In this document: one piece after another, positions 7,607-29,853 of the stretch
Layout of the letters: the number at the start of each line of letters is the position of its first letter
How positions within the stretch are numbered: the first letter of the stretch is position 1
From: an uncultured Alphaproteobacteria bacterium
GTDB lineage: Bacteria > Pseudomonadota > Alphaproteobacteria > Methylaequorales > Methylaequoraceae
Length of the DNA: 64,000 nt
Direction: 5' to 3'
Assembly: GCA_902550225.1 (NCBI GenBank)
Contig: CACCYL010000003.1
Span: forward strand, 6,213-70,212
The notes under the pieces: model-generated
What the model saw: the letters and a program-made list of their open reading frames with translations, nothing else
Told to the model about the DNA's origin: nothing
Database searches by the model: none
Program-made: the position numbers and the translations under genes

Positions 7607-7740
7607 AACTTTATCTAATTCTCCAATTTTTACACTATACTTTATATTTGTTAAGAATTTTTTGTCAATTCATTACTTTAAGTAATTTTTGTTGTTAAAT
7701 TTATTTATTATGTTATTAAATTTACATATTGGTGATTCAT

Positions 7741-8916
7741 ATGAATGAAATAGTTATAACTACAGCTAAAAGGCTTCCCATTGGAAAATTCATGGGAAGT
7801 TTATCAAACTTTTCAGCCCCTCAGTTAGGAAGCTCGGTCATCGATTCAGTAATCTCGGAGTCAGGAATTTCAAAAGATCTCATAGATGAAATAATAATGG
7901 GACAAGTGTTAACTGGTGGGTCTGGACAGAACCCTGCAAGACAAGCATCCATGTTGTCTGACTTACCCGAAAAAGTAAGTGCTCTTACAGTAAACCAAGT
8001 CTGTGGATCTGGTCTGAGATCAGTTATGATAGCTTGCCAATCTATATTATCCGGTCAAAGTGAGATTGTGATTGCTGGAGGCCAAGAAAGCATGTCAAAT
8101 GCTCATCATACAATAAATATAAGAAATGGACTAAAAATGGGTGATGGTAAAATTAAAGATAGCATGATTGTTGACGGACTTTGGTGTGCTATGAATAATT
8201 ATCACATGGGAACTACTGCAGAAAATATTGCAGAGAAATTTAATATATCCAAAGAGGAACAGGATAAATTTGCAACAAACTCCCAAAACAAGGCTGAAAG
8301 TGCACAAAAAAATAATTTTTTTAAAAATGAAATAACTTCGATAACAATTTTAAAAAAAAAAGAAGAAATTTTATTTGAAACAGATGAATTTCCACGACAT
8401 GGAACTACTTTTGATAAATTAAGTTCTTTGAAACCTGTCTTTGACAAAAATGGCACTGTTACAGCAGGAAATGCATCTGGATTAAATGATGGAGCAGCAG
8501 CAGTGTTAGTTATGAAAAAAGAGAAAGCCAAAGAGTTAGGACTTAAACCGCTTGTAAGTATAGTATCATCTTCAACAATTGGAGTTGATCCTTCGATAAT
8601 GGGTATTGGCCCTGTTCCTGCTGTAAAAAAAGCTCTAGAAGAAGCTAAATGGACTGTTGAAGAACTTGACTTGATTGAGGCAAATGAAGCTTTTGCAGCC
8701 CAATCTTTAGCAGTTTCTAAAGAACTTGATTGGGATATGAATAAAGTTAATGTGAGTGGAGGAGCAATTGCACTAGGTCACCCAATAGGAGCATCAGGAA
8801 CTAGAATATTAGTCACTTTAATTCATGAACTAGGAAGACAAAATAAGAAAAAGGGAATTGCAACCTTGTGCATTGGCGGAGGTCAAGGAGTTGCAATGTG
8901 CGTTGAAAGAAAATAA
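7741..8916 (+). CDS. phaA: Acetyl-CoA C-acetyltransferase (thiolase II)
   Basis: VNQVCGSGLRS (active-site Cys), NEAFAAQ, GGAIALGHPIGASG and CIGGGQG thiolase signatures. Start taken at MNEIVIT (7741). Confidence 0.9.
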   Translation: MNEIVITTAKRLPIGKFMGSLSNFSAPQLGSSVIDSVISESGISKDLIDEIIMGQVLTGGSGQNPARQASMLSDLPEKVSALTVNQVCGSGLRSVMIACQSILSGQSEIVIAGGQESMSNAHHTINIRNGLKMGDGKIKDSMIVDGLWCAMNNYHMGTTAENIAEKFNISKEEQDKFATNSQNKAESAQKNNFFKNEITSITILKKKEEILFETDEFPRHGTTFDKLSSLKPVFDKNGTVTAGNASGLNDGAAAVLVMKKEKAKELGLKPLVSIVSSSTIGVDPSIMGIGPVPAVKKALEEAKWTVEELDLIEANEAFAAQSLAVSKELDWDMNKVNVSGGAIALGHPIGASGTRILVTLIHELGRQNKKKGIATLCIGGGQGVAMCVERK

Positions 8917-9638
8917 TGACAAAAATAGCAATTGTTACAGGAGGAACCAGAGGGATAGGTGCCTCAATTTCCAAAAAATTAAAGTCATCAAACTTTAAAG
9001 TCATTGCTAATTATACAAGTAATGACGATGCTGCGAAATCTTTTTCAAAAGAAAATAATATCGAAGTAATTAAGTGGGATGTTAGTAGTTATGAGGAATG
9101 CCAAAAATCCGTTAATAAAATCTATGAGGATAATAAGAATGTTGATATTCTTATAAATAATGCAGGAATTACCAGAGACGCGCCCCTTCATAAAATGAGT
9201 AGAGATAACTGGCAAAAAGTTATTGATGTTAACTTAAATTCAATCTTTAATATGACATCATTAGTAATTAATAAAATGAGAGAAAATAGCTTTGGAAGAA
9301 TAATTCATATTTCTTCTGTAAATGGACAAAAGGGGCAGTTTGGTCAAACCAATTATGCAGCAACAAAATCAGCCCTTATCGGTTTCTCAAAATCTTTAGC
9401 ACTTGAAAGTGCTAGTAAAGGTATCACTTCTAACGTAATCTGTCCTGGTTATATCAATACGGAAATGGTCGCGGCCATAAGAGAAGACATCTTAAAATCC
9501 ATTATCGAAACAATACCAAATAAGAGATTAGGTGAGGCCGATGAAGTAGCACAAATGGTAGGTTATCTTGTTTCAGATAAAGCCAGCTATGTAAATGGCT
9601 CTACCTTTTCAATAAATGGTGGCTTATGGATGGATTAA
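8916..9638 (+). CDS. phaB: Acetoacetyl-CoA reductase (SDR)
   Basis: TGGTRGIG, NNAGIT, YAATK SDR motifs. 240 aa. ATGA-coupled to the thiolase. Confidence 0.85.
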   Translation: MTKIAIVTGGTRGIGASISKKLKSSNFKVIANYTSNDDAAKSFSKENNIEVIKWDVSSYEECQKSVNKIYEDNKNVDILINNAGITRDAPLHKMSRDNWQKVIDVNLNSIFNMTSLVINKMRENSFGRIIHISSVNGQKGQFGQTNYAATKSALIGFSKSLALESASKGITSNVICPGYINTEMVAAIREDILKSIIETIPNKRLGEADEVAQMVGYLVSDKASYVNGSTFSINGGLWMD

Positions 9639-19761: not shown

Positions 19762-20271
19762 ATGAAGTATTTTATTTTTATTATATCTTTAGTTATTTCA
19801 AATTTATCTTATTCATATGAGAACAATCAACTATTATTACACAATCCAGCTAAAAAAATTAATTTTTTTGATCTAGAAACCTTGGATGGTAAAAAGGTTG
19901 AAGTTGCTGATAAATTGGTTAAAAAAAAACTAATTTTAGTTAACTTTTGGGCTACTTGGTGTCCACCATGTATAAAAGAAATCCCGGATCTATTAAATTT
20001 AGAAAAAAAATTTGAAAGGGACATTGAAATTATTTTTGTATCAGTTGATGCTAATCCCACAAAAGTTATACCTAAATTCTTAAAAAAGAACGAGTTAGAA
20101 AATTTTCAAACTTACATTGATAAAAAGCTTAATTTAACTAAGGAACTAAAAGTTAAAGTAATGCCAACAACTTTAGTTATCACGGAGGGGCCATATGAAC
20201 TGTCAAGAGTAGAAGGTTACATTGATTGGTTAAACAAAGAACTTCTCACCGAACTCGAAAAAATATTATAA
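19762..20271 (+). CDS. TlpA/ResA-like periplasmic thiol:disulfide oxidoreductase
   Basis: Signal peptide plus LVNFWATWCPPCIKE thioredoxin-fold active site. Confidence 0.8.
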   Translation: MKYFIFIISLVISNLSYSYENNQLLLHNPAKKINFFDLETLDGKKVEVADKLVKKKLILVNFWATWCPPCIKEIPDLLNLEKKFERDIEIIFVSVDANPTKVIPKFLKKNELENFQTYIDKKLNLTKELKVKVMPTTLVITEGPYELSRVEGYIDWLNKELLTELEKIL

Positions 20272-21201
20272 TTTCTCCTCTAACTTTGGTAGAAGTTCAA
20301 AAAGATCACCAACTAGACCATAATCAGAAAAGTTAAAAATTGGAGCTTCCTCATCCTTGTTAATACAAGCTATAAACTTTGAATCTTTTATCCCAGCAAT
20401 ATGTTGGATTGCTCCAGAAATTCCAACAGCGATGTACAAATCTGGCGCAACTATTTTTCCTGTTTGACCAACTTGCCAATCATTCGGAACAAAACCAGCA
20501 TCAACAGCCGCTCTACTTGCGCCCATTGCAGCACCTAGTTTGTCTGCTATACCCTCTAATAGTCTAAAGTTTTCTCCATTTTGCATACCTCTTCCGCCTG
20601 AAATCACTATTTTAGCACTTGTTAATTCTGGGCGATCTGATTTAGATTTATCGTAACTTACAAAACTAACTGAATTATTTTTATCAAGATTTACTGTTAA
20701 ACTTTCGACATCAACACTAGAGTTTAAAGCACATGGTTCAAAACAAGTGGATCGAACAGTAATGATTTTTATCTGATCACTGGACTTTACTTTTGCAATA
20801 GCATTTCCTGCATAAATTGGCCTTTCAAAAGTATCGTCGCTAATAATTTTAGTAACATCAGAGATCTGTTGAACATCCATAAGAGCTGACAGCTTTGGAG
20901 ACATATTTTTTCCAAATGTGCTTGATGGTGAAAGTATGTGTGTGTAATCAGAACCTTCAGCAAACTTTTGAATAGCATTAGATAAATTTTCAGCTAATGG
21001 ATTTTTAAATAACTCATTATCTATCTTGTAAATTTTTTTAAGATGATCAGATTTTTTTAATTCATTGATTACTGAATCCAGACCTTGACCAAGAACTATT
21101 GCCTCAACTGAATCACTTATCTCTTTAGCAGCAGTTATGGTTGAAAAACTCGATTGTTTTACACTTTGATTATCATGTTCAATTATTACCAAAACTTTCA
21201 T
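20266..21201 (-). CDS. etfA: Electron transfer flavoprotein alpha subunit
   Basis: C-terminal FAD domain VISGGRG ... [24 protein letters not shown]. Confidence 0.93.
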
Positions 21202-21953
21202 AATACTTTTGCCTCATTTTTAAGTTTATTTACAAGTGCTTCCACGTCGTCAACCTTGATACCTGGTTTTCTCTCTGGGGGTTCATTTACTTCCAAAACT
21301 TGAAGTCTATCTTTAATATCGATACCAAAACTTCCAATTTCAAGCACATCAATTTTTTTTTGTTTAGCTTTCATAATATTAGGTAAAGATGCATATCTAG
21401 GTTCATTTAAACGTAAATCTGTAGTTACAACACAAGGAATATTTACTTTTACAGTTTCTAGTCCGCCATCAACCTCCCTTGTAACTTCGAGAGTGTTGTC
21501 ATCATTCTTTTTTAATTCTGAAGCAAAAGTTGCTTGGGGAAATTCTAACAATGTGGCTACGATCTGACCTGTTTGATTGCAATCATCGTCTATAGCTTGT
21601 TTACCTAATATTATGATATCTGGCTTCTCTCTGTCAGAAACGGCTTTAATTATTTTTCCTACAGTAAGAGGTTCTAGTTGTTCTTTTTCTGTTTTTACTA
21701 AAATACCTCTGTCACCACCCATTGCAAGTCCGGATCTAATCGTTTCTTGAGATTTGTCAGTTCCTATTGATAGTATAACTATTTCTTTAATTTCACTTTT
21801 CTCCTTCATTCTAACTGCTTCCTCTACTGCGATCTCATCAAAAGGATTCATTGACATCTTGACATTATCTGTTTCTACTCCTGATTTATCAGATTTTACT
21901 CTTATTCTGACATTGTAATCAATAACTCTTTTTACACAAACTAATGCTTTCAT
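21198..21953 (-). CDS. etfB: Electron transfer flavoprotein beta subunit
   Basis: MKALVCVKRVIDYNV..NPFDEIAVEEA..LGKQAIDDD, typical EtfB. ATGA overlap with etfA. Confidence 0.93.
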   Translation of the reverse strand: MKALVCVKRVIDYNVRIRVKSDKSGVETDNVKMSMNPFDEIAVEEAVRMKEKSEIKEIVILSIGTDKSQETIRSGLAMGGDRGILVKTEKEQLEPLTVGKIIKAVSDREKPDIIILGKQAIDDDCNQTGQIVATLLEFPQATFASELKKNDDNTLEVTREVDGGLETVKVNIPCVVTTDLRLNEPRYASLPNIMKAKQKKIDVLEIGSFGIDIKDRLQVLEVNEPPERKPGIKVDDVEALVNKLKNEAKVL

Positions 21954-21967
21954 AACCTTTTCCTTAA

Positions 21968-22516
21968 TTAATTTTTATTTGGAATCCAAAGTATATCACC
22001 ATCTTTTTTATTCTCAAACCTAGCAGCTACAAAAAGAAAATCGGAAAGCCTATTTATATATTTAATTATATCGGTACTTACTTTTTCTTTGTCATTTAGT
22101 TCTATAATTGATCTTTCTGCTCTTCTGACATTAGATCTTGATAAATGAAGAAATGACGAAAGTTGACTTCCTCCAGGGAGAATAAATGACTGTAATTTAT
22201 CTAATTCTTTATTCATTTGGTCGATTTTATTTTCAAGAAAATTAATTTTATCACTTGATATTGTGACATGTCTTTTTGAATTTTCAGGAAAACACAAATC
22301 TGCCCCAATATCAAAAAGATGATTTTGAATCTCAAGTAGTATTTTTTTTAAATTTTTACTGGATAAGAATACGCATATTCCTAGTGATGAGTTTGCCTCA
22401 TCAATGTCGCCGTATGCTTTTATTCTTATGTTACTCTTTTGAACCCTTGAACCATCGCCCAGACTTGTTAAACCTTTATCCCCTCCTCGAGTATAAATTT
22501 TATCAAGCTTAACCAA
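21968..22516 (-). CDS. pduO: ATP:cob(I)alamin adenosyltransferase, PduO type
   Basis: IYTRGGDKGLTSL N-terminus, LPGG and R..RRAER motifs of PduO/MMAB-type adenosyltransferases. Confidence 0.9.
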   Translation of the reverse strand: MVKLDKIYTRGGDKGLTSLGDGSRVQKSNIRIKAYGDIDEANSSLGICVFLSSKNLKKILLEIQNHLFDIGADLCFPENSKRHVTISSDKINFLENKIDQMNKELDKLQSFILPGGSQLSSFLHLSRSNVRRAERSIIELNDKEKVSTDIIKYINRLSDFLFVAARFENKKDGDILWIPNKN

Positions 22517-22524
22517 TTTGTCTC

Positions 22525-22716
22525 CTAAGATTTTAAGAAAAGGGCAACCGTTAGAATTGTAAGTGTCACAAATTGTATCGCTACTCTGTACCTCATGAAT
22601 AAATTGATCTTATTATTTTCTTCGTTAGATCTAGCTGTATGAAAGAGTCCAATCAAAAGTACAAGGAATGTGGTGATTAGACATATTACAATTATAAAGT
22701 TTAGGAAGGATTCCAT
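22525..22716 (-). CDS. Twin-transmembrane-helix small protein (HIG1 domain)
   Basis: 63 aa with two hydrophobic helices separated by a short polar loop. TAATG overlap with the upstream ACAD stop. Confidence 0.65.
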   Translation of the reverse strand: MESFLNFIIVICLITTFLVLLIGLFHTARSNEENNKINLFMRYRVAIQFVTLTILTVALFLKS

Positions 22717-24401
22717 TATCTGGCTAAAAGACCTTTTACAACAATTTGAGCCTGGATTTCTGCAGCCCCTTCAAAAATGTTGAGAATTCTTGAATCACAT
22801 AAAACTCTGCTAATAGGATACTCAAGAGCGTAACCGTTTCCACCATGAATTTGAAGAGCACTGTCAGCGTTGCTCCAAGCGACTCTCGCAGCAAGGAGTT
22901 TTGCCATACCTGCCTCAATATCACATCTGACATCATTATCTTTTTCTCTGGCGGAAAATAAAGTTATTTGTCGAGCAACGGTTGTCTCCATAGCCATCCA
23001 AGCTAACTTATTGAATATTCTGGGAAATTTAAGTATTTGTTTGCCGAATTGACTTCTATCTTTCGCATATTGCAAACCCAATTCAAGAGCGTTTTGTGCA
23101 ACGCCTACAGCTCTTGCGGCTGTTTGAATTCTAGCAGATTCAAAAGTTTCCATGAGTTGTTTAAATCCATTACCTTCTTGTTCACCTAAAAGATTTTTCT
23201 TGCTTACTTTTATGTCTTCAAGAGCTATCTCATATTCCTTCATTCCTCTATATCCTAAGACTTCAATTTCACTTCCTGACATTCCTTCCATAGGGAAAGG
23301 TTTTTCACAATTGCCTCTCGGTTTTTCCACCAAGAACATGCTTAGACCTTTATAGCCTTTCTGATTCATATCTGTTCTTGCAAGGACTGTCATCAAATCT
23401 GACCTTGCACCATGAGTTATCCAAGTTTTGTTTCCATTTATAATGTAATCGTCTCCTTGGGGCTGAGCTCTGGTTGAAAGACTGCCTAAATCTGATCCTG
23501 TGTTTGGTTCAGTAAAAACTGCGGTTGTCAAAATGTTGCCTGAAGCGATCTCGGGCAGATATTTTTTTTTCTGTTCTTCTGTACCGCCAAGTCTAATTAA
23601 TTCACCTGCAATTTCTGCTCGAGTACCTAAGGATCCAGCAGCCAAAAAACCTCTAGAGAGTTCTTCAGTTACAACACACATTGCGACTTTTCCCATTCCT
23701 AAACCACCATAATTTTCAGGAATTGCAATGCTAAACACTCCTAACTCGGCCATTTTTTTGAGAACATCATCTGGAATCAAAGCATCCTTTAAGTGCCATT
23801 CATTGGCATGAGGTAAGATTTCTTCCTCTGTAAATTTTTTGAACTGATCTTGAATCATATCAAGAGTCTCATCGTTGAGCCCCAGACTAGGGTGGATATC
23901 TTTATCAAGTGAATCAACAATTACCGTTTTAATTTTATCGGAAAGACCTATGTCTATTAAATCTTTGGCAGATTCGTCGTTCATGAATTCAAAATCGTTC
24001 TCATCTAGATGAAGGTCAGACGGCCTAACTATTTCTGATTGACTCATCATAATACCATTTCTCATTTGAGTTAGATATTCAGCAAAGGCGAACAGTGTTA
24101 TAGCAGCGTCAATCTCAGAGGATTTATTTTCGTCATTAAGACGAATAAACCAATTAAGTGTTTCTCTTAGTCCTATTCTATATGTGTCAAACCATGCAAA
24201 ACCATGTGTTTTAGATTGATTTAATTCTAATAACTGGTTATCGATTCTATTGTCTTTGGTTAAAGCTGACTTGAATGCTTCCCTTGATTTACTGGAAATT
24301 GTTTCAAGTTTATTCAGAATATTCTTTAATATATCAGTGTTAGACAGAAGATATTTTTTAAAACTAATTATTTCTGAATTTATGTTAACGGAACTATCCA
24401 T
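22716..24401 (-). CDS. mcd: Acyl-CoA dehydrogenase with about 170-aa N-terminal extension; probable (2S)-methylsuccinyl-CoA dehydrogenase
   Basis: 561 aa. The C-terminal roughly 380 aa are a canonical ACAD (FTEPNTGSDLGS, WITHG, QIHGGNGY). Size, extension, and position between ccr and etfBA fit Mcd of the ethylmalonyl-CoA pathway. Confidence 0.72.
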   Translation of the reverse strand: MDSSVNINSEIISFKKYLLSNTDILKNILNKLETISSKSREAFKSALTKDNRIDNQLLELNQSKTHGFAWFDTYRIGLRETLNWFIRLNDENKSSEIDAAITLFAFAEYLTQMRNGIMMSQSEIVRPSDLHLDENDFEFMNDESAKDLIDIGLSDKIKTVIVDSLDKDIHPSLGLNDETLDMIQDQFKKFTEEEILPHANEWHLKDALIPDDVLKKMAELGVFSIAIPENYGGLGMGKVAMCVVTEELSRGFLAAGSLGTRAEIAGELIRLGGTEEQKKKYLPEIASGNILTTAVFTEPNTGSDLGSLSTRAQPQGDDYIINGNKTWITHGARSDLMTVLARTDMNQKGYKGLSMFLVEKPRGNCEKPFPMEGMSGSEIEVLGYRGMKEYEIALEDIKVSKKNLLGEQEGNGFKQLMETFESARIQTAARAVGVAQNALELGLQYAKDRSQFGKQILKFPRIFNKLAWMAMETTVARQITLFSAREKDNDVRCDIEAGMAKLLAARVAWSNADSALQIHGGNGYALEYPISRVLCDSRILNIFEGAAEIQAQIVVKGLLAR

Positions 24402-24443
24402 AATCTATATATTTAATAATTATTTTTTCTTATTCAAGTTTAA

Positions 24444-25673
24444 TTATAATTCATTAAAGCTTTTCATTCCAGTCTTTTTTGCTTGAACTAAAGCTGCCAT
24501 ATTACCAGGAAGATGTTTATTGTTCATCATCTTCGTATGAGCCAACGGTATTTCGCTCCATTTAAAACACTCAGACATTAAGGGTTTTATTAACTTGTTA
24601 ATCATCATGTCATTTGCTTGTTTAGCTTGAAACAAGTTTGCAAAATGACTTCCTTGAATTCTTTTTTGTCTCATCCACACATAACGTGCATCCATTGTTA
24701 AGTTATACCCTGATGTTCCAGCACAAATCACAACCATTCCTCCAGTCTTTACCAAATAACAAGAAACCGGAAAAGTTGATTCTCCTGGATGTTCAAAAAC
24801 TATATCTACATCTTTTTTTCCAGTGATTTCCCAAATGTCTTTTCCTAAAACTCTACAATTTTTTATAAATTTAGAATATTCAGATTGATCTTTGACATCT
24901 GGAAGTTGTCCAAAACAATTATAATTTTTTCTGTTCAGCACTCCAGCTGCACCAAGGTCTTTAACAAATGGAATTTTTTCATCATCTGAAATGATACCTA
25001 TTGCATTTGCACCAACTGCCTTACATATCTGTACTGCCATGCTTCCAATCCCCCCAGAGGCTCCCCAAACTAAAACATTCATCCCGGGCTTTAACGCGTG
25101 AGGTGGGTGTCCAAAAAGCATTCTGAAAGAGGTTGCTAATGTTAAGGTGTAACAACCGCTTTCTTCCCATGACAGATGCTCAGGTTTGTTTAGTAGTTGT
25201 CTTGACTGAACTGTCGTAAATTGTGCAAAAGAACCGTCATTAGTTTCGTACCCCCATATCCTCTGAGACTTTGAATACATTGGTTCTCCTCCATTACATT
25301 CTTCGTCGTCCCCATCATCTCTATTACAATGAATAATGACCTCATCACCAACTTTCCATCTTTTCACATTATCACCAATTGCCCAAACAATGCCAGATGC
25401 ATCTGATCCTCCAATATGATATCCAGTATCTTTTCCGATTACTGATATTGGGATACCTTGAGATGCCCAAACATTGTTATAATTTATTCCAACTGCCATA
25501 ACCATTACGAGAACTTCGTCTTTGCCAGGTTTTTGAACTGGCATCTTCTCAATTTGCATGGCGACCTCTGGAAAACCTAATCGATCCTCTCTTATGACCC
25601 ATGCATACATTTCTTCAGGCACTTCTCCCAAACTTGGTATTTCACCAATCTCATAAATTTTCTTTGCAGTCAT
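24444..25673 (-). CDS. ccr: Crotonyl-CoA carboxylase/reductase
   Basis: N-terminus YEIGEIPSLGEVPEEMYAWVIREDRLG.P..AMQIE and VMAVGINYNNVWA, as I remember Ccr sequences. MDR fold with WGASGGIGS NADPH site. Confidence 0.85.
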   Translation of the reverse strand: MTAKKIYEIGEIPSLGEVPEEMYAWVIREDRLGFPEVAMQIEKMPVQKPGKDEVLVMVMAVGINYNNVWASQGIPISVIGKDTGYHIGGSDASGIVWAIGDNVKRWKVGDEVIIHCNRDDGDDEECNGGEPMYSKSQRIWGYETNDGSFAQFTTVQSRQLLNKPEHLSWEESGCYTLTLATSFRMLFGHPPHALKPGMNVLVWGASGGIGSMAVQICKAVGANAIGIISDDEKIPFVKDLGAAGVLNRKNYNCFGQLPDVKDQSEYSKFIKNCRVLGKDIWEITGKKDVDIVFEHPGESTFPVSCYLVKTGGMVVICAGTSGYNLTMDARYVWMRQKRIQGSHFANLFQAKQANDMMINKLIKPLMSECFKWSEIPLAHTKMMNNKHLPGNMAALVQAKKTGMKSFNEL

Positions 25674-25773
25674 AACGGTTCCTATGATATTCTTAGATGA
25701 TTTATACCACTAAAAATTAAAAAATAAATGAAATTTCTTGTTAGCTATTAAAAATAATATTATTTAAGGAAAA

Positions 25774-27753
25774 ATGAATAAAGTTAAAGATAAGCCCTGG
25801 ATGATAAGAACTTATGCTGGTCACTCATCAGCTGAAGCCTCTAACAGACTTTACAGAACAAATCTAAAAAAAGGGCAAACAGGTTTATCCGTTGCTTTCG
25901 ACCTACCCACACAAACTGGATATGATTCAGATCATATTCTTTCAAAAGGTGAGGTTGGTAAAGTAGGAGTACCAATCAGCCATATTGGAAATATGCAAAC
26001 TCTCTTTAACAAAATTCCCTTGGAAAAAATGAACACGTCAATGACTATTAATGCTCCAGCTCCTTGGTTGCTAGCTTTATATATTGCAACAGCTGAGAAA
26101 CAAGGAGTTGATAAAAGTCTTCTTGCTGGTACCACACAAAATGATATTACAAAAGAATATCTATCAAGAGGTACTTACATTTTTCCTCCTGAACCTAGTT
26201 TAAAATTAACCACTGATGTTATTAAATACACTACTTGTGAAATACCCAAATGGAACCCCATAAATATTTGTTCGTATCACCTTCAGGAAGCAGGAGCAAC
26301 ACCTGAGCAGGAACTATCTTTTGCTTTGGCTACTGCAATCGGAGTTCTAGAATATTTACATAATTCTGAAAAAATTAAGAAATCTCTTTTTGAAAAGATT
26401 GTTGGAAGAATAAGTTTTTTTGTTAACTCAGGAATGCGATTCGTTACTGAAACCGCTAAAATGGCGTCGTTCACTGAACTTTGGGATGAAATATGTTCCA
26501 AAAGGTTTAAGATTTCAGATCCAAAATACAGAAGGTTTAGGTATGGTATGCAAGTTAACTCGCTTGGCTTAACTGAATTACAACCAGAAAATAATGTTTA
26601 TAGAATTTTAATTCAAATGCTTCCGGTTGTTATTGCTAAAAATTCTAGAGCAAGAGCAGTTCAATTGCCAGCATGGAATGAAGCTCTTGGTCTTCCTAGA
26701 CCATGGGACCAACAATGGAGTCTTCGACTGCAGCAAATAATGGCGTATGAAACAGACATATTAGAATTTTCAGATATATTTGAGGGTTCAAAAGTATTGA
26801 AAGAAAAAATTAATCTTTTGAAAAAATCTGCTTACGATCAGTTGTCAAAAATAGATAAAATTGGAGGATTGATTCCAGCAATTGAAAATGGTTATCTGAA
26901 AAGTCAACTTGTTGAATCGCAAACGAATAGACAGAGGAATATAGAGCAGGGCGAACAAAAAGTTGTCGGTGTGAACTGTTTTTCAGAGGGAGAAAATTCA
27001 CCTTTAGTTGATGAAAAAGATGGCGGATTTATGAAAGTTAATGATGAAGCTGAGAAGACTCAAATTAATAATGTTAAAAATTGGAAAGAAAAAAGAAATA
27101 ATAAAAAAATAGTCTTGTGTCTTAAAAAATTGAAGGAAATTGCAACTCAGGGTGGAAATATTATGGAAGTTTCCATCGATTGTGCTCATCAAGGTGTAAC
27201 AACTGGAGAATGGTCAAATGTTATGAGAGAAGTCTTTGGAGAATACAGAGCTCCAACAGGAATAGTTTCGTCTCACATCTCAAAAACCAAATCGGACAAC
27301 TCAGATATACATAAAATCCAAAAAGAAATTAACAGAATAACTTCCAAACTTAAAAGACGCCCTAAAATGCTGGTCGGCAAACCTGGTTTAGATGGGCACT
27401 CTAATGGTGCTGAACAAATAGCCGTAAGAGCAAGAGATATCGGCTTGGAAGTAGTTTATGATGGAATAAGATCAACACCCGAACAACTCGTAGTTGCTGC
27501 AATAGAAGAAGGTGTCCACATAATTGGTTTATCAATACTCTCAGGATCACACGTTCATCTAGTAAGAATTATAATGAATCTTTTAAAAAAGAATAACTTT
27601 TCAAGAATACCTGTAATTGTTGGAGGAATCATTCCTCCCGCAGATGAGAGAAAATTAAAGTCTTTTGGAGTTAAAGAAGTTTTTACGCCAAAGGATTTTA
27701 AAATTGAAGAAATAATGCAACAAATAACTCAAATCATTAAAGAAGCGTATTGA
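25774..27753 (+). CDS. ecm: Ethylmalonyl-CoA mutase (adenosylcobalamin-dependent, fused barrel plus B12 domain)
   Basis: PWMIRTYAGHSSAEASN..GQTGLSVAFDLPTQTGYDSDH..GEVGKVGV (the RTYAGHS variant typical of Ecm/MeaA rather than the RQYAGFS of Mcm). C-terminal GLDGHSNGAEQI B12-binding DxHxxG motif. Confidence 0.85.
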   Translation: MNKVKDKPWMIRTYAGHSSAEASNRLYRTNLKKGQTGLSVAFDLPTQTGYDSDHILSKGEVGKVGVPISHIGNMQTLFNKIPLEKMNTSMTINAPAPWLLALYIATAEKQGVDKSLLAGTTQNDITKEYLSRGTYIFPPEPSLKLTTDVIKYTTCEIPKWNPINICSYHLQEAGATPEQELSFALATAIGVLEYLHNSEKIKKSLFEKIVGRISFFVNSGMRFVTETAKMASFTELWDEICSKRFKISDPKYRRFRYGMQVNSLGLTELQPENNVYRILIQMLPVVIAKNSRARAVQLPAWNEALGLPRPWDQQWSLRLQQIMAYETDILEFSDIFEGSKVLKEKINLLKKSAYDQLSKIDKIGGLIPAIENGYLKSQLVESQTNRQRNIEQGEQKVVGVNCFSEGENSPLVDEKDGGFMKVNDEAEKTQINNVKNWKEKRNNKKIVLCLKKLKEIATQGGNIMEVSIDCAHQGVTTGEWSNVMREVFGEYRAPTGIVSSHISKTKSDNSDIHKIQKEINRITSKLKRRPKMLVGKPGLDGHSNGAEQIAVRARDIGLEVVYDGIRSTPEQLVVAAIEEGVHIIGLSILSGSHVHLVRIIMNLLKKNNFSRIPVIVGGIIPPADERKLKSFGVKEVFTPKDFKIEEIMQQITQIIKEAY

Positions 27754-27916: not shown

Positions 27917-28606
27917 GTGGACATTAGTAAAATTATTGAATTTACAAATAAGTACACTTCAAATAGAAGGGAATTTGAATATTGCCCCATTTTTGATTTT
28001 GAATCGTTGAAACCGAAGCTAAAGTTCGATCACAAACAAAAATTTTGCAATGGAAGAAAATTCATCATAGAAAGAAAATTTCTCTCAAAATTTGGATTCC
28101 CTGCATATGGAGTACACTGCAATGTTTGGAGCAAATTCAAAAACTCAACAATTATTCATCTCGCCAAAAGATCATGCAAGCTAAGAAAGTTCCCTGGTCT
28201 TTTTGATAATTTAATTGCTGGTGGTCAACCAATAGATTTATCTATAAAAGACAATTTATATAAAGAAGCGTTTGAAGAAGCTGGGTTAAGTGAAGAACAA
28301 TCTTCCCATGCAAAAAGAAGTAATACTGTCCATTATCAACACAATGAAAACACAAATTTCAATTCAGCAATTATATTTAACTATCATTTAGAAAAATCCG
28401 ATGACATGAAATTTTCCAATCAAGACGGCGAGGTAGAAAGTTTTTTATCGATTGAAATCGAAAAACTTCACAAGATTTTAGAAAAAAATTTTTTAAAACC
28501 AAATTGTGTAATTCCTTTAATAGATTTTTTTATATTAAAAGAAGGTGATTTTGTTCCAAAAAGCGTTATCGTTGAAATTAAAAGATTATTTAATACAAAT
28601 GAATGA
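27917..28606 (+). CDS. Nudix hydrolase (NUDT20/24 / YJR142W-like); 5' end unresolved
   Basis: Nudix box GGQPIDLSIKDNLYKEAFEEAGL. The reading frame is open from 27761, and the upstream residues look like the N-terminal domain of this family. There is no canonical start upstream of the GTG at 27917 unless an A9 tract is read with a -1 shift from the ATG at 27753. See finding. Confidence 0.7.
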   Translation: MDISKIIEFTNKYTSNRREFEYCPIFDFESLKPKLKFDHKQKFCNGRKFIIERKFLSKFGFPAYGVHCNVWSKFKNSTIIHLAKRSCKLRKFPGLFDNLIAGGQPIDLSIKDNLYKEAFEEAGLSEEQSSHAKRSNTVHYQHNENTNFNSAIIFNYHLEKSDDMKFSNQDGEVESFLSIEIEKLHKILEKNFLKPNCVIPLIDFFILKEGDFVPKSVIVEIKRLFNTNE

Positions 28607-29252
28607 AAACTTTAATGGACAAATTTTGCTACCAGAAGAAAATAAAGTCAAAAATGCAATTGTATTTCTGCACGGTTATGGCGCAAATTCAGAAGATCTG
28701 ATTAATATTGGTTTAGAATGGAAACAAGATCTACCGTCCACAGTTTTTATTTCTCCAAATGCTCCATTTAAATGTGAATGGGGAGAAAACGCATACCAAT
28801 GGTTTGACCTCACCTCTATTTCCCCTGAAAAAATTGGTGAAGGTTTAAAAAAAGCAGGTCCGCATCTAATAAATTTGATAGAGGATGTTAAAAAAGAATT
28901 TTCTTTGGTTGAATCTCAAATTGCTTTTTTCGGATTTTCTCAAGGAGCAATGATGGGCTTATATCATCTGTGTAAAAGGAAGCAAAGTTGTGCGGGATTG
29001 TTGGCTTACTCAGGGCTTCTATTCGAAGATAAAGATTTTGAAAACGAAGTTTCATCTAAATTCCCAATAAGAATTTTTCACGGTAAAGATGATGAAGTAA
29101 TACATTATGAAAATTCATTAAACTCTTATAACAAGCTAAAGAAAATGGGTTTTTCTGTTGATCATCATATTCAAGATAACCTTGGCCATGGCATTGACAA
29201 ATTTGGCTTAAAATTCGGAAATGATTTCTTGAAAAAAATTTTTAAAGTTTAA
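28599..29252 (+). CDS. Phospholipase/carboxylesterase family alpha/beta hydrolase
   Basis: VFLHGYGAN, GFSQGAMM nucleophile elbow, HG.DD..I and GHGI motifs. Start set at MNENFNG (28599), overlapping the Nudix stop. Confidence 0.8.
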   Translation: MNENFNGQILLPEENKVKNAIVFLHGYGANSEDLINIGLEWKQDLPSTVFISPNAPFKCEWGENAYQWFDLTSISPEKIGEGLKKAGPHLINLIEDVKKEFSLVESQIAFFGFSQGAMMGLYHLCKRKQSCAGLLAYSGLLFEDKDFENEVSSKFPIRIFHGKDDEVIHYENSLNSYNKLKKMGFSVDHHIQDNLGHGIDKFGLKFGNDFLKKIFKV

Positions 29253-29292: not shown

Positions 29293-29853
29293 ATGAATCT
29301 AGTACCTAATAAATGTCCTGCGCTTGTGCTTAATGCTGATTATCAGCCCTTGAGTTATTTTCCTCTATCTACTTGGTCGTGGAAAAACGCCCTCAAGGCA
29401 GTCTTCTTAGACAGGGTGAATGTGGTTTCAGAATACAATCAAGTCGTTAGGTCGCCCTCTACAACATTGAAACTTCCGAGTGTTGTTTCTCTTAAAGACT
29501 ATATTCCATTACCAGAAAAAGCAGCATTTACGAGATTCAACGTTTTTTTGAGAGATAAATTTTTATGTCAATATTGCTCGAAAAGTTTTAAAGTTGAAGA
29601 ACTTACCTTTGATCATGTTATACCAAAATCTAAAGGAGGAAAAACTACTTGGGACAATGTTGTTACATCTTGTAGGGTTTGTAATACTCTTAAGGGAAAC
29701 AAATCTTTAAAAAAAATTGGAGTTAAACTTAGATCTAATCCATACACTCCAAATAACTTTGAATTAAAAGAAATCGGAAGATTGTTCCCTCCTAATTTTC
29801 TTCATCAAAGTTGGAATGATTTTCTATATTGGGATTCCGAGCTTGAGCCTTAA
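29293..29853 (+). CDS. HNH endonuclease family protein
   Basis: CQYC...FDHVIPKSKGGKTTWDNVVTSCRVCNTLKGN HNH/zinc motif. Confidence 0.8.
   Translation: MNLVPNKCPALVLNADYQPLSYFPLSTWSWKNALKAVFLDRVNVVSEYNQVVRSPSTTLKLPSVVSLKDYIPLPEKAAFTRFNVFLRDKFLCQYCSKSFKVEELTFDHVIPKSKGGKTTWDNVVTSCRVCNTLKGNKSLKKIGVKLRSNPYTPNNFELKEIGRLFPPNFLHQSWNDFLYWDSELEP

Follow-up and report, generated by a model that had tools for sequence, protein, structure and literature searches.

The ethylmalonyl-CoA (EMC) pathway of Methylobacterium extorquens AM1 is a close described counterpart of the locus analysed here and comprises crotonyl-CoA carboxylase/reductase (Ccr), ethylmalonyl-CoA mutase (Ecm, or MeaA), (2S)-methylsuccinyl-CoA dehydrogenase (Mcd), Mcl, Epi, Pcc, methylmalonyl-CoA mutase (Mcm) and MeaB; M. 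extorquens AM1 makes its own B12. The same set, with the same expected role in supplying glyoxylate, is present in the alphaproteobacterial order TMED127, to which we assign the uncultured bacterium studied here. The analysis concerns a stretch of 64,000 nucleotides from this organism (assembly GCA_902550225.1, contig CACCYL010000003.1, positions 6,213 to 70,212 of the forward strand; hereafter, the window, whose own numbering is used below), which carries a compact cluster of EMC genes. Paracoccus denitrificans and R. sphaeroides, the latter likewise with ccr and ecm adjacent, are versatile heterotrophs with the pathway for C2 substrates, whereas TMED127 is read as obligately methylotrophic. 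The Mcd of P. denitrificans (PdMCD) corresponds to structure 6ES9, and its specificity determinants are Arg252, Arg376, Arg421, Ala285 and Phe287, with Glu535 as the catalytic residue (PMC5798300).

Glass et al. 2025 (PMC12542740) described TMED127 ('Methylaequorales'), with one family and 12 genera, as streamlined and probably obligate XoxF methylotrophs, found that this order transcribes xoxF most actively in oligotrophic surface water, and predicted that they combine the serine cycle with the EMC pathway, so the presence of this pathway in the order is already known. SAR11 genomes are likewise small, AT-rich and from the surface ocean, but SAR11 belongs to another order and has the glyoxylate shunt as a hallmark (PMC10308909), whereas TMED127 has XoxF methylotrophy, the EMC pathway instead of the shunt, and three B12-dependent enzymes. 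We consider that the cluster in the window is the EMC pathway core of a streamlined marine TMED127 methylotroph and that it regenerates glyoxylate for methanol assimilation, with a probability of about 0.85.

Pathway genes and their host

The Ccr encoded in the window is 98% and 92% identical to those of the isolates AG-908-F15 and AG-911-L17, both classified as o__TMED127; f__TMED127; g__GCA-2691245 (Table S3, PMC12542740). Relatives of this Ccr at 89–98% identity were found in just four species representatives, including TMED13, which is named as a TMED127 genus in the same study, and identity then falls to 69% or less. In our search collection, the order of the genome comprises 14 genera and 42 species, all in one family, a size far too small for Pelagibacterales and consistent with TMED127. 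In view of this small size, AEGEAN-169/HIMB59 was also considered as the lineage, and it was set aside when TMED13 and the isolate names could be traced to TMED127. The host is therefore a member of TMED127 (Methylaequorales), probably of genus GCA-2691245. As expected of a TMED127 methylotroph, the genome, which is small, low in G+C (25–37%) and 63% complete, encodes a XoxF-family pyrroloquinoline quinone-dependent methanol dehydrogenase (669 bits, cutoff 480). The genes and the spacer of the cluster, together with the two entry genes of the pathway, are as follows.

20266-21201, minus strand: etfA, electron transfer flavoprotein (ETF) alpha subunit (PF01012 and PF00766; 4-nt overlap with etfB)
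21198-21953, minus strand: etfB, ETF beta subunit of the acyl-CoA dehydrogenase (ACAD)-partner type (PF01012)
21968-22516, minus strand: pduO-type ATP:cob(I)alamin adenosyltransferase (TIGR00636, 190 bits, cutoff 108; PF01923, 199 bits)
22525-22716, minus strand: HIG1, or twin-transmembrane-helix, small protein of 63 aa (PF04588, 34 bits, cutoff 22.4)
22716-24401, minus strand: mcd, (2S)-methylsuccinyl-CoA dehydrogenase, 561 aa, with an N-terminal extension of about 170 residues (629 bits to 6ES9)
24444-25673, minus strand: ccr, crotonyl-CoA carboxylase/reductase (TIGR01751 equivalog, 547 bits, cutoff 378; 611 bits to 4GI2)
25674-25773, no strand: divergent ccr-ecm intergenic region with presumed promoters (exactly 100 bp from the open reading frame (ORF) coordinates)
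25774-27753, plus strand: ecm (meaA), predicted ethylmalonyl-CoA mutase, 659 aa, with a fused B12-binding domain (PF01642 and PF02310)
7729-8916 (or from the ATG at 7741), plus strand: phaA, acetyl-CoA C-acetyltransferase, EMC entry (TIGR01930, 472 bits, cutoff 240)
8916-9638, plus strand: phaB, acetoacetyl-CoA reductase, EMC entry (TIGR01829, 340.5 bits, cutoff 302)

Residues 28–559 of the window Mcd align to 6ES9, and all six PdMCD determinants are kept when the alignment is read against the numbering of PMC5798300, so that the N-terminal extension, the three-arginine carboxylate site, Ala285/Phe287 and Glu535 are common to both enzymes. Ccr exceeds its equivalog cutoff, and 4GI2, to which it was also matched, is annotated as a crotonyl-CoA carboxylase/reductase. 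The adenosyltransferase reaches the equivalog score of the PduO type, has the corrinoid adenosyltransferases 2G2D and 6WGS as its best PDB matches (140 bits), and starts at a TTG codon preceded by AGGAGA at 5 nt. EtfB gave 297 bits to human ETF beta (1EFV; 1T9G is the same sequence) and 283 bits to the 1EFP beta chain, and the EtfB query used gave a single match in the genome. FixAB and the other specialised ETF models of the NCBIfam scan all scored far below their cutoffs against the window EtfA and EtfB. Together with an ETF-QO domain found in the genome at 166 bits, the EtfA/EtfB pair thus has the make-up of an ACAD-partner (group I) ETF.

The genome encodes two acyl-CoA mutases. The one encoded on contig C1, next to MeaB, is a canonical Mcm (1212 bits, cutoff 876), whereas the window mutase, which is 37% identical to it, scores 549 bits on the same equivalog model, below the cutoff. 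In 46 alphaproteobacterial genomes, PF01642 scores fell into two classes, one of 763–818 bits over the full profile and the other of about 371–458 bits starting at profile positions 34–43, and a comparison of coordinates showed that most members of the lower class directly adjoin ccr. In a quick IQ-TREE phylogeny of 54 mutases with SH-aLRT support, all 25 ccr-adjacent sequences, with the window protein among them, formed one clade (branch length 3.53, support of 100), and the Mcm of the same genome grouped with the Mcm-type sequences. An alignment made in the present analysis contains 63 positions that are essentially fixed differently between the Ecm and Mcm clades, several of them flanking catalytic residues, and at these positions the window mutase carries the states of the ccr-adjacent clade. 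Homologues with 80–84% identity to it carry the names 'protein meaA' or '(2R)-ethylmalonyl-CoA mutase' in their source annotations. The residues Tyr14, Gln122, Arg132, Tyr168 and His169 are kept, corresponding to Tyr89, Gln197, Arg207, Tyr243 and His244 of the 1REQ mutase, as is the cobalamin motif D540-x-H542-x-x-G545. We take Tyr89 and Arg207 (1REQ numbering) to mark mutases acting on carboxylated substrates and to be replaced in Icm-type mutases. Judged from its sequence, the window mutase is an Ecm distinct from Mcm, with ethylmalonyl-CoA as its predicted substrate.

These results bear out the account given of the six ORFs (etfA, etfB, pduO, mcd, ccr and ecm) in an earlier note on this DNA, both for their positions and, by profile, PDB and tree evidence, for their identities. 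This includes the 561-aa ACAD with an N-terminal extension as Mcd, for which the match to 6ES9 is full length, the divergence of ccr and ecm across 100 bp, the supply of the entry steps by phaA and phaB, and the placement of the mutase with Ecm rather than Mcm or Icm and of the reductase with Ccr. The note was also correct that the crotonase, epimerase, mesaconyl-CoA hydratase (Mch) and Mcl steps lie outside the window. An epimerase (TIGR03081, 166 bits, cutoff 115), Mcl1 (486 bits to 5UGR) and a PccB-type carboxyltransferase (678 bits) are encoded elsewhere in the genome and, with Mcm, account for further steps of the pathway. Nearly all relatives have genes for a double-MaoC protein of about 350 aa (Mch-like) and a MaoC protein of about 155 aa (PhaJ-like), which share a contig with ccr and follow it at distances of some 46 and 58 kb. 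In the genome of the window, contig C3 starts too late to include the corresponding position, so the gap is best explained by the assembly and not by gene loss.

Ccr was detected above its cutoff in 34 of the 42 genomes of the order, and it was found in nine of nine high-quality ones. Isocitrate lyase was found in none of these nine, neither isocitrate lyase nor malate synthase was found in the genome of the window, and malate synthase was found in one of the 42 genomes, the one with the highest contamination. The glyoxylate shunt is therefore lacking by these searches, and the alternative already considered in the earlier note, in which the shunt would be present and the other EMC genes absent, does not fit, since those other genes are present (Mch and PhaJ in relatives). 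The EMC pathway is thus the only recognisable route in TMED127 for regenerating the glyoxylate of the serine cycle, and this regeneration, for methanol assimilation, is likely its main role.

What the analysis shows is which genes are present, how they are ordered and distributed, and where their products fall in the tree; substrates, co-transcription, electron flow and the source of B12 are deduced. The proposed route is as follows. PhaA and PhaB would form 3-hydroxybutyryl-CoA, which a PhaJ-type hydratase would convert to crotonyl-CoA, the predicted substrate for reductive carboxylation to ethylmalonyl-CoA by Ccr. After epimerisation, ethylmalonyl-CoA would be converted by Ecm, with adenosylcobalamin (AdoCbl) as cofactor, to methylsuccinyl-CoA, and Mcd would oxidise the latter to mesaconyl-CoA. 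Mch and Mcl1 would then yield glyoxylate and propionyl-CoA, and propionyl-CoA would be carried to succinyl-CoA by Pcc, epimerase and Mcm, the second AdoCbl enzyme, with MeaB. Electrons from Mcd would pass through EtfAB and ETF-QO to the quinone pool, and PduO would adenosylate imported cobalamin for both Ecm and Mcm. The parts assigned by the earlier note to ETF, as acceptor for Mcd, and to PduO, as supplier of AdoCbl, are reasonable.

Mcd was the sole PF00441 ACAD in five of five TMED127 genomes checked, four of which are at least 93% complete, and ETF-QO was present in all five. With Mcd as the only ACAD found, the Mcd/EtfAB/ETF-QO relay would in practice be dedicated to one reaction, and ETF and ETF-QO apparently serve the reaction of Mcd only in TMED127, a point that is new here and is suggested by gene content. 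Compared with M. extorquens AM1, the TMED127 genomes are about 1.5 Mb in size and have a single copy of each gene, and they may be regarded as a minimal natural case of ETF and ETF-QO serving a single enzyme, Mcd.

Several points weigh against the cluster being the EMC core of a methylotroph that regenerates glyoxylate. What identifies the Ecm clade is the association of its members with ccr and the names that automatic annotation has given them, not a characterised reference sequence. Mch and a PhaJ-type or crotonase hydratase were not found in the genome itself, which is 63% complete, and their presence is deduced from relatives. The serine-cycle genes, PccA and the lack of 2-oxoglutarate dehydrogenase are taken solely from PMC12542740. 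The genes ccr-mcd-HIG1-pduO-etfB-etfA look like one operon, with ecm divergent, and this is suggested by spacing, namely gaps of 42 nt or less and the overlap of mcd with the HIG1 gene. Finally, M. extorquens uses the EMC pathway for growth on C2 compounds as well (PMC2948502), and in TMED127 the pathway may therefore have a C2 role or one related to polyhydroxybutyrate.

Gene order and competing explanations

The 63-aa HIG1 ORF is an additional gene, absent from the earlier note, that fills an apparent gap of 199 bp between pduO and mcd. It is a member of the HIG_1_N family by its Pfam score and gave 42 bits with NF033233, slightly below the cutoff of 49. Its ATG overlaps the stop codon of mcd by 1 nt (TAATG). 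A regulatory element was first suspected in the conserved mcd–pduO gap, and was rejected when the gap proved to be this ORF. The genes from ccr to etfA are co-directional, as the note had it, but they are not mostly overlapping: true overlaps are limited to etfA/etfB (4 nt) and mcd/HIG1 (1 nt), and the remaining gaps are of 8, 14 and 42 nt. No Rfam match was found between 19500 and 30000 at E <= 1, including the ccr–ecm spacer, and the whole window gave two tRNA matches and nothing else. Promoter and terminator scans were uninformative, with counts equal to the shuffled expectation; promoter-like matches in the ccr–ecm spacer were not above those of shuffled sequences.

Three further genes follow ecm.

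27917-28606, plus strand: ORF with a weak NUDIX match (PF00293, 21.1 bits, exactly at the cutoff)
28545-29252, plus strand: Abhydrolase_2 esterase (PF02230, 127 bits)
29293-29853, plus strand: HNH protein (PF01844, 64 bits)

The order of this trio downstream of ecm is kept in 11 loci of other TMED127 genera (L106–L116), and it was also seen in several distant Alphaproteobacteria (Kiloniella and others). At the other end of the cluster, a TlpA/ResA-like thiol-disulfide oxidoreductase gene (19762-20271) converges on etfA with a 6-nt overlap, and in every TMED127 locus examined the cluster ends at this conserved tlpA gene.

The whole arrangement, tlpA followed by etfA-etfB-pduO-HIG1-mcd-ccr and, divergently, by ecm and the NUDIX-like, esterase and HNH genes, is identical in these 11 loci; etfA is syntenic and the HIG1 ORF present in 15 of 15 TMED127 loci. 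Outside the order, 76 alphaproteobacterial ccr loci were compared, and about 18 of them have mcd, pduO and etfB within 8 kb; these include loci of Pelagibius, Sneathiella and Kiloniella and one from a metagenome-assembled genome (MAG) of Xanthobacteraceae. Two Paracoccaceae loci, both short (L031 and L051), had mcd-pduO-etfBA beside ccr in neither case. For the 28 other ccr loci with pduO, the HIG1 ORF is directly upstream of pduO in 24 and etfB is next in 19, whereas mcd abuts the module in six. A survey of about 120 alphaproteobacterial families, each represented by a single genome, was tabulated by hand and gives approximate figures. Where pduO and etfB are both present (G072, with EtfB and no PduO, stands outside the counts), they lie 1 kb or less apart in about 27 of the 38 families with Ccr and about 21 of 38 families in which Ccr was not found. 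HIG1-pduO-etfBA, being frequent with and without Ccr, is thus a generic module, often but not necessarily linked to the EMC pathway. On the evidence of synteny, the layout is an inherited one, in which an EMC gene pair stands beside this alphaproteobacterial module. The window has the same order and close spacing as the module elsewhere, and an ACAD-partner ETF. Its genes are counterparts of mitochondrial HIGD, MMAB and ETFB/ETFA, and the PduO family includes MMAB (2IDX). In the larger genomes, the ETF presumably serves many dehydrogenases, whereas that of the window has one ACAD client and its module is joined to ccr-mcd without spare intergenic space.

It is therefore misleading to speak of the adenosyltransferase and ETF as the cluster's own, as the earlier note did, since the module is about as frequent where Ccr was not found. 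Nor is the bundling a novelty of streamlining, given the same layout in the 11 loci of other TMED127 genera and in many Alphaproteobacteria. The same counts could be taken further, to mean that pduO-etfBA serves housekeeping, adjoins ccr-mcd by accident and is connected with the EMC pathway neither in function nor in regulation, and both the rarity with which mcd abuts the module and the need for PduO to serve Mcm, which is encoded elsewhere, would agree with this. However, ccr lies within about 10 kb of pduO in about 20 of the 38 Ccr-positive families, far above chance in genomes of 2–6 Mb, the TMED127 genes are tightly packed (TAATG and gaps of 8–14 nt) with the same order in 11 of 11 loci from other genera, and Mcd is the only ACAD available for the ETF to serve. 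We therefore regard a chance neighbourhood as unlikely, although it is the best placed of the alternatives to glyoxylate regeneration by an EMC core with its cofactor and redox partners.

A second explanation starts from the conditional premise of the earlier note that this might be a Pelagibacterales genome, and holds that the cluster is a B12-dependent route for the assimilation of acetate, other C2 compounds or 3-hydroxybutyrate, replacing the glyoxylate shunt in a distinct SAR11 ecotype. The low G+C content and small genome do resemble SAR11, phaA and phaB are nearby, the genes of the shunt were not found in the genome, and the EMC pathway supports C2 growth in M. extorquens (PMC2948502). 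Two TMED127 MAGs (L010 and L011), close relatives of the genome, also carry the label 'Pelagibacteraceae bacterium' at NCBI, and such labels can mislead interpretations based on taxonomy. However, this explanation is refuted on taxonomy: the nearest relatives belong to the GTDB order TMED127, an order of 42 species in one family, and the genome falls outside Pelagibacterales as judged from these relatives and from the size of the order. The genome encodes XoxF in an order read as obligately methylotrophic (PMC12542740), in which regeneration of glyoxylate for the serine cycle is expected rather than acetate or C2 assimilation, and Ccr is nearly universal in the order and cannot mark an ecotype within it. 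No paper linking SAR11 to the EMC pathway was found in the literature. We consider this explanation improbable, and the idea of a B12-dependent SAR11 ecotype should not draw support from the window.

A third explanation, that the divergent mutase is a second methylmalonyl-CoA or isobutyryl-CoA-type mutase and ccr a generic enoyl reductase, with no EMC pathway, has in its favour that NCBIfam has no Ecm-specific model, so that the best named matches are methylmalonyl-CoA mutase families, and that the nearest solved structures are methylmalonyl-CoA mutases (about 390–399 bits), but it can be dismissed as highly improbable in view of the canonical Mcm with MeaB already encoded in the genome, the score of the window mutase below the Mcm cutoff, its 63 fixed differences shared with the fully supported ccr-adjacent clade, its conserved Tyr14 and Arg132, the equivalog score of Ccr and the three substrate arginines of Mcd. 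A role of ccr in the supply of polyketide extender units was set aside on genome size and pathway context alone.

The cluster itself is ordinary: its EMC core is a textbook one, the pathway is already published for the lineage, and the layout is common to many Alphaproteobacteria. The main use of its analysis is the correction of its attribution to SAR11.

Cobalamin supply

The genome encodes three B12-dependent enzymes, Ecm, Mcm and MetH. MetH is laid out as two adjacent genes of about 351 and about 880 aa (C24:1-2348 and C23:2782-3267; also in relatives G020, G027 and G033). CbiC, which is needed for corrin-ring synthesis, was found in three of the 42 genomes of the order, but neither in the genome of the window (63% complete) nor in 15 relatives of the same genus. 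The genes cobT-cobS-cobC, for lower-ligand activation and assembly of the nucleotide loop, are kept at C2:126466-128893, outside the window, although searches of five genomes of the same genus recovered neither CobU nor BluB.

Cobalamin riboswitches (RF00174) were detected in 31 of the 42 genomes, including that of the window, in which the riboswitch lies directly upstream of genes for a 686-aa TonB-dependent receptor and a TonB-family protein (C8:62282-65387, outside the window). The receptor matched the BtuB model TIGR01779 in the plug region only, with 76 bits against a cutoff of 600, and thus falls outside BtuB as defined by this model. Homologues of the receptor stand behind a riboswitch in four other genera, and, as RF00174 precedes its gene, the receptor may have the function of BtuB. 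The dependence on cobalamin salvage proposed in the earlier note fits these observations, namely the riboswitch before the receptor and the failure to find CbiC in the genome and its 15 relatives. Within the order, the riboswitch leads into the receptor and TonB genes in CbiC-negative genera (L093, L095, L097 and L098), whereas in a genus that has CbiC (L094 and L096) it is followed by a biosynthesis operon with cobW and cobN, and cobA lies upstream. TMED127, although a single order of streamlined methylotrophs, thus looks split between B12 producers and auxotrophs.

Methylotrophs with cobalamin-dependent mutases in their primary metabolism have been considered as potential B12 production strains (PMC9925536). 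M. extorquens AM1 differs in this respect from most TMED127 genera, in which corrin-ring synthesis is lacking and B12 is apparently imported. Their combination of this lack with a B12 riboswitch before a TonB-dependent receptor is new here; the words 'B12' and 'cobalamin' are absent from the main text of PMC12542740. On balance, we lean slightly towards a wider proposal, according to which most TMED127, a group widespread in the surface ocean, would be B12 auxotrophs whose sole route for methanol carbon runs through Ecm and Mcm, with MetH as a further B12-dependent enzyme, and whose uptake of corrinoids would be controlled by a riboswitch and effected by a TonB-dependent receptor that differs from canonical BtuB. 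In this proposal, a few sister genera would keep, behind the same riboswitch, an aerobic synthesis operon of the cobW-cobN type, and ETF and ETF-QO would be kept for a single dehydrogenase.

Central carbon assimilation in TMED127 thus seems to require imported B12. This dependence, which the main text of PMC12542740 does not mention, could matter to marine microbiologists, as could the dedication of ETF and ETF-QO to one enzyme. If this is true, the order would offer a natural contrast between producers and auxotrophs, the supply of B12 and cobalt would gate marine methanol consumption, and the turnover of methanol in the ocean would be tied to the supply of a vitamin.

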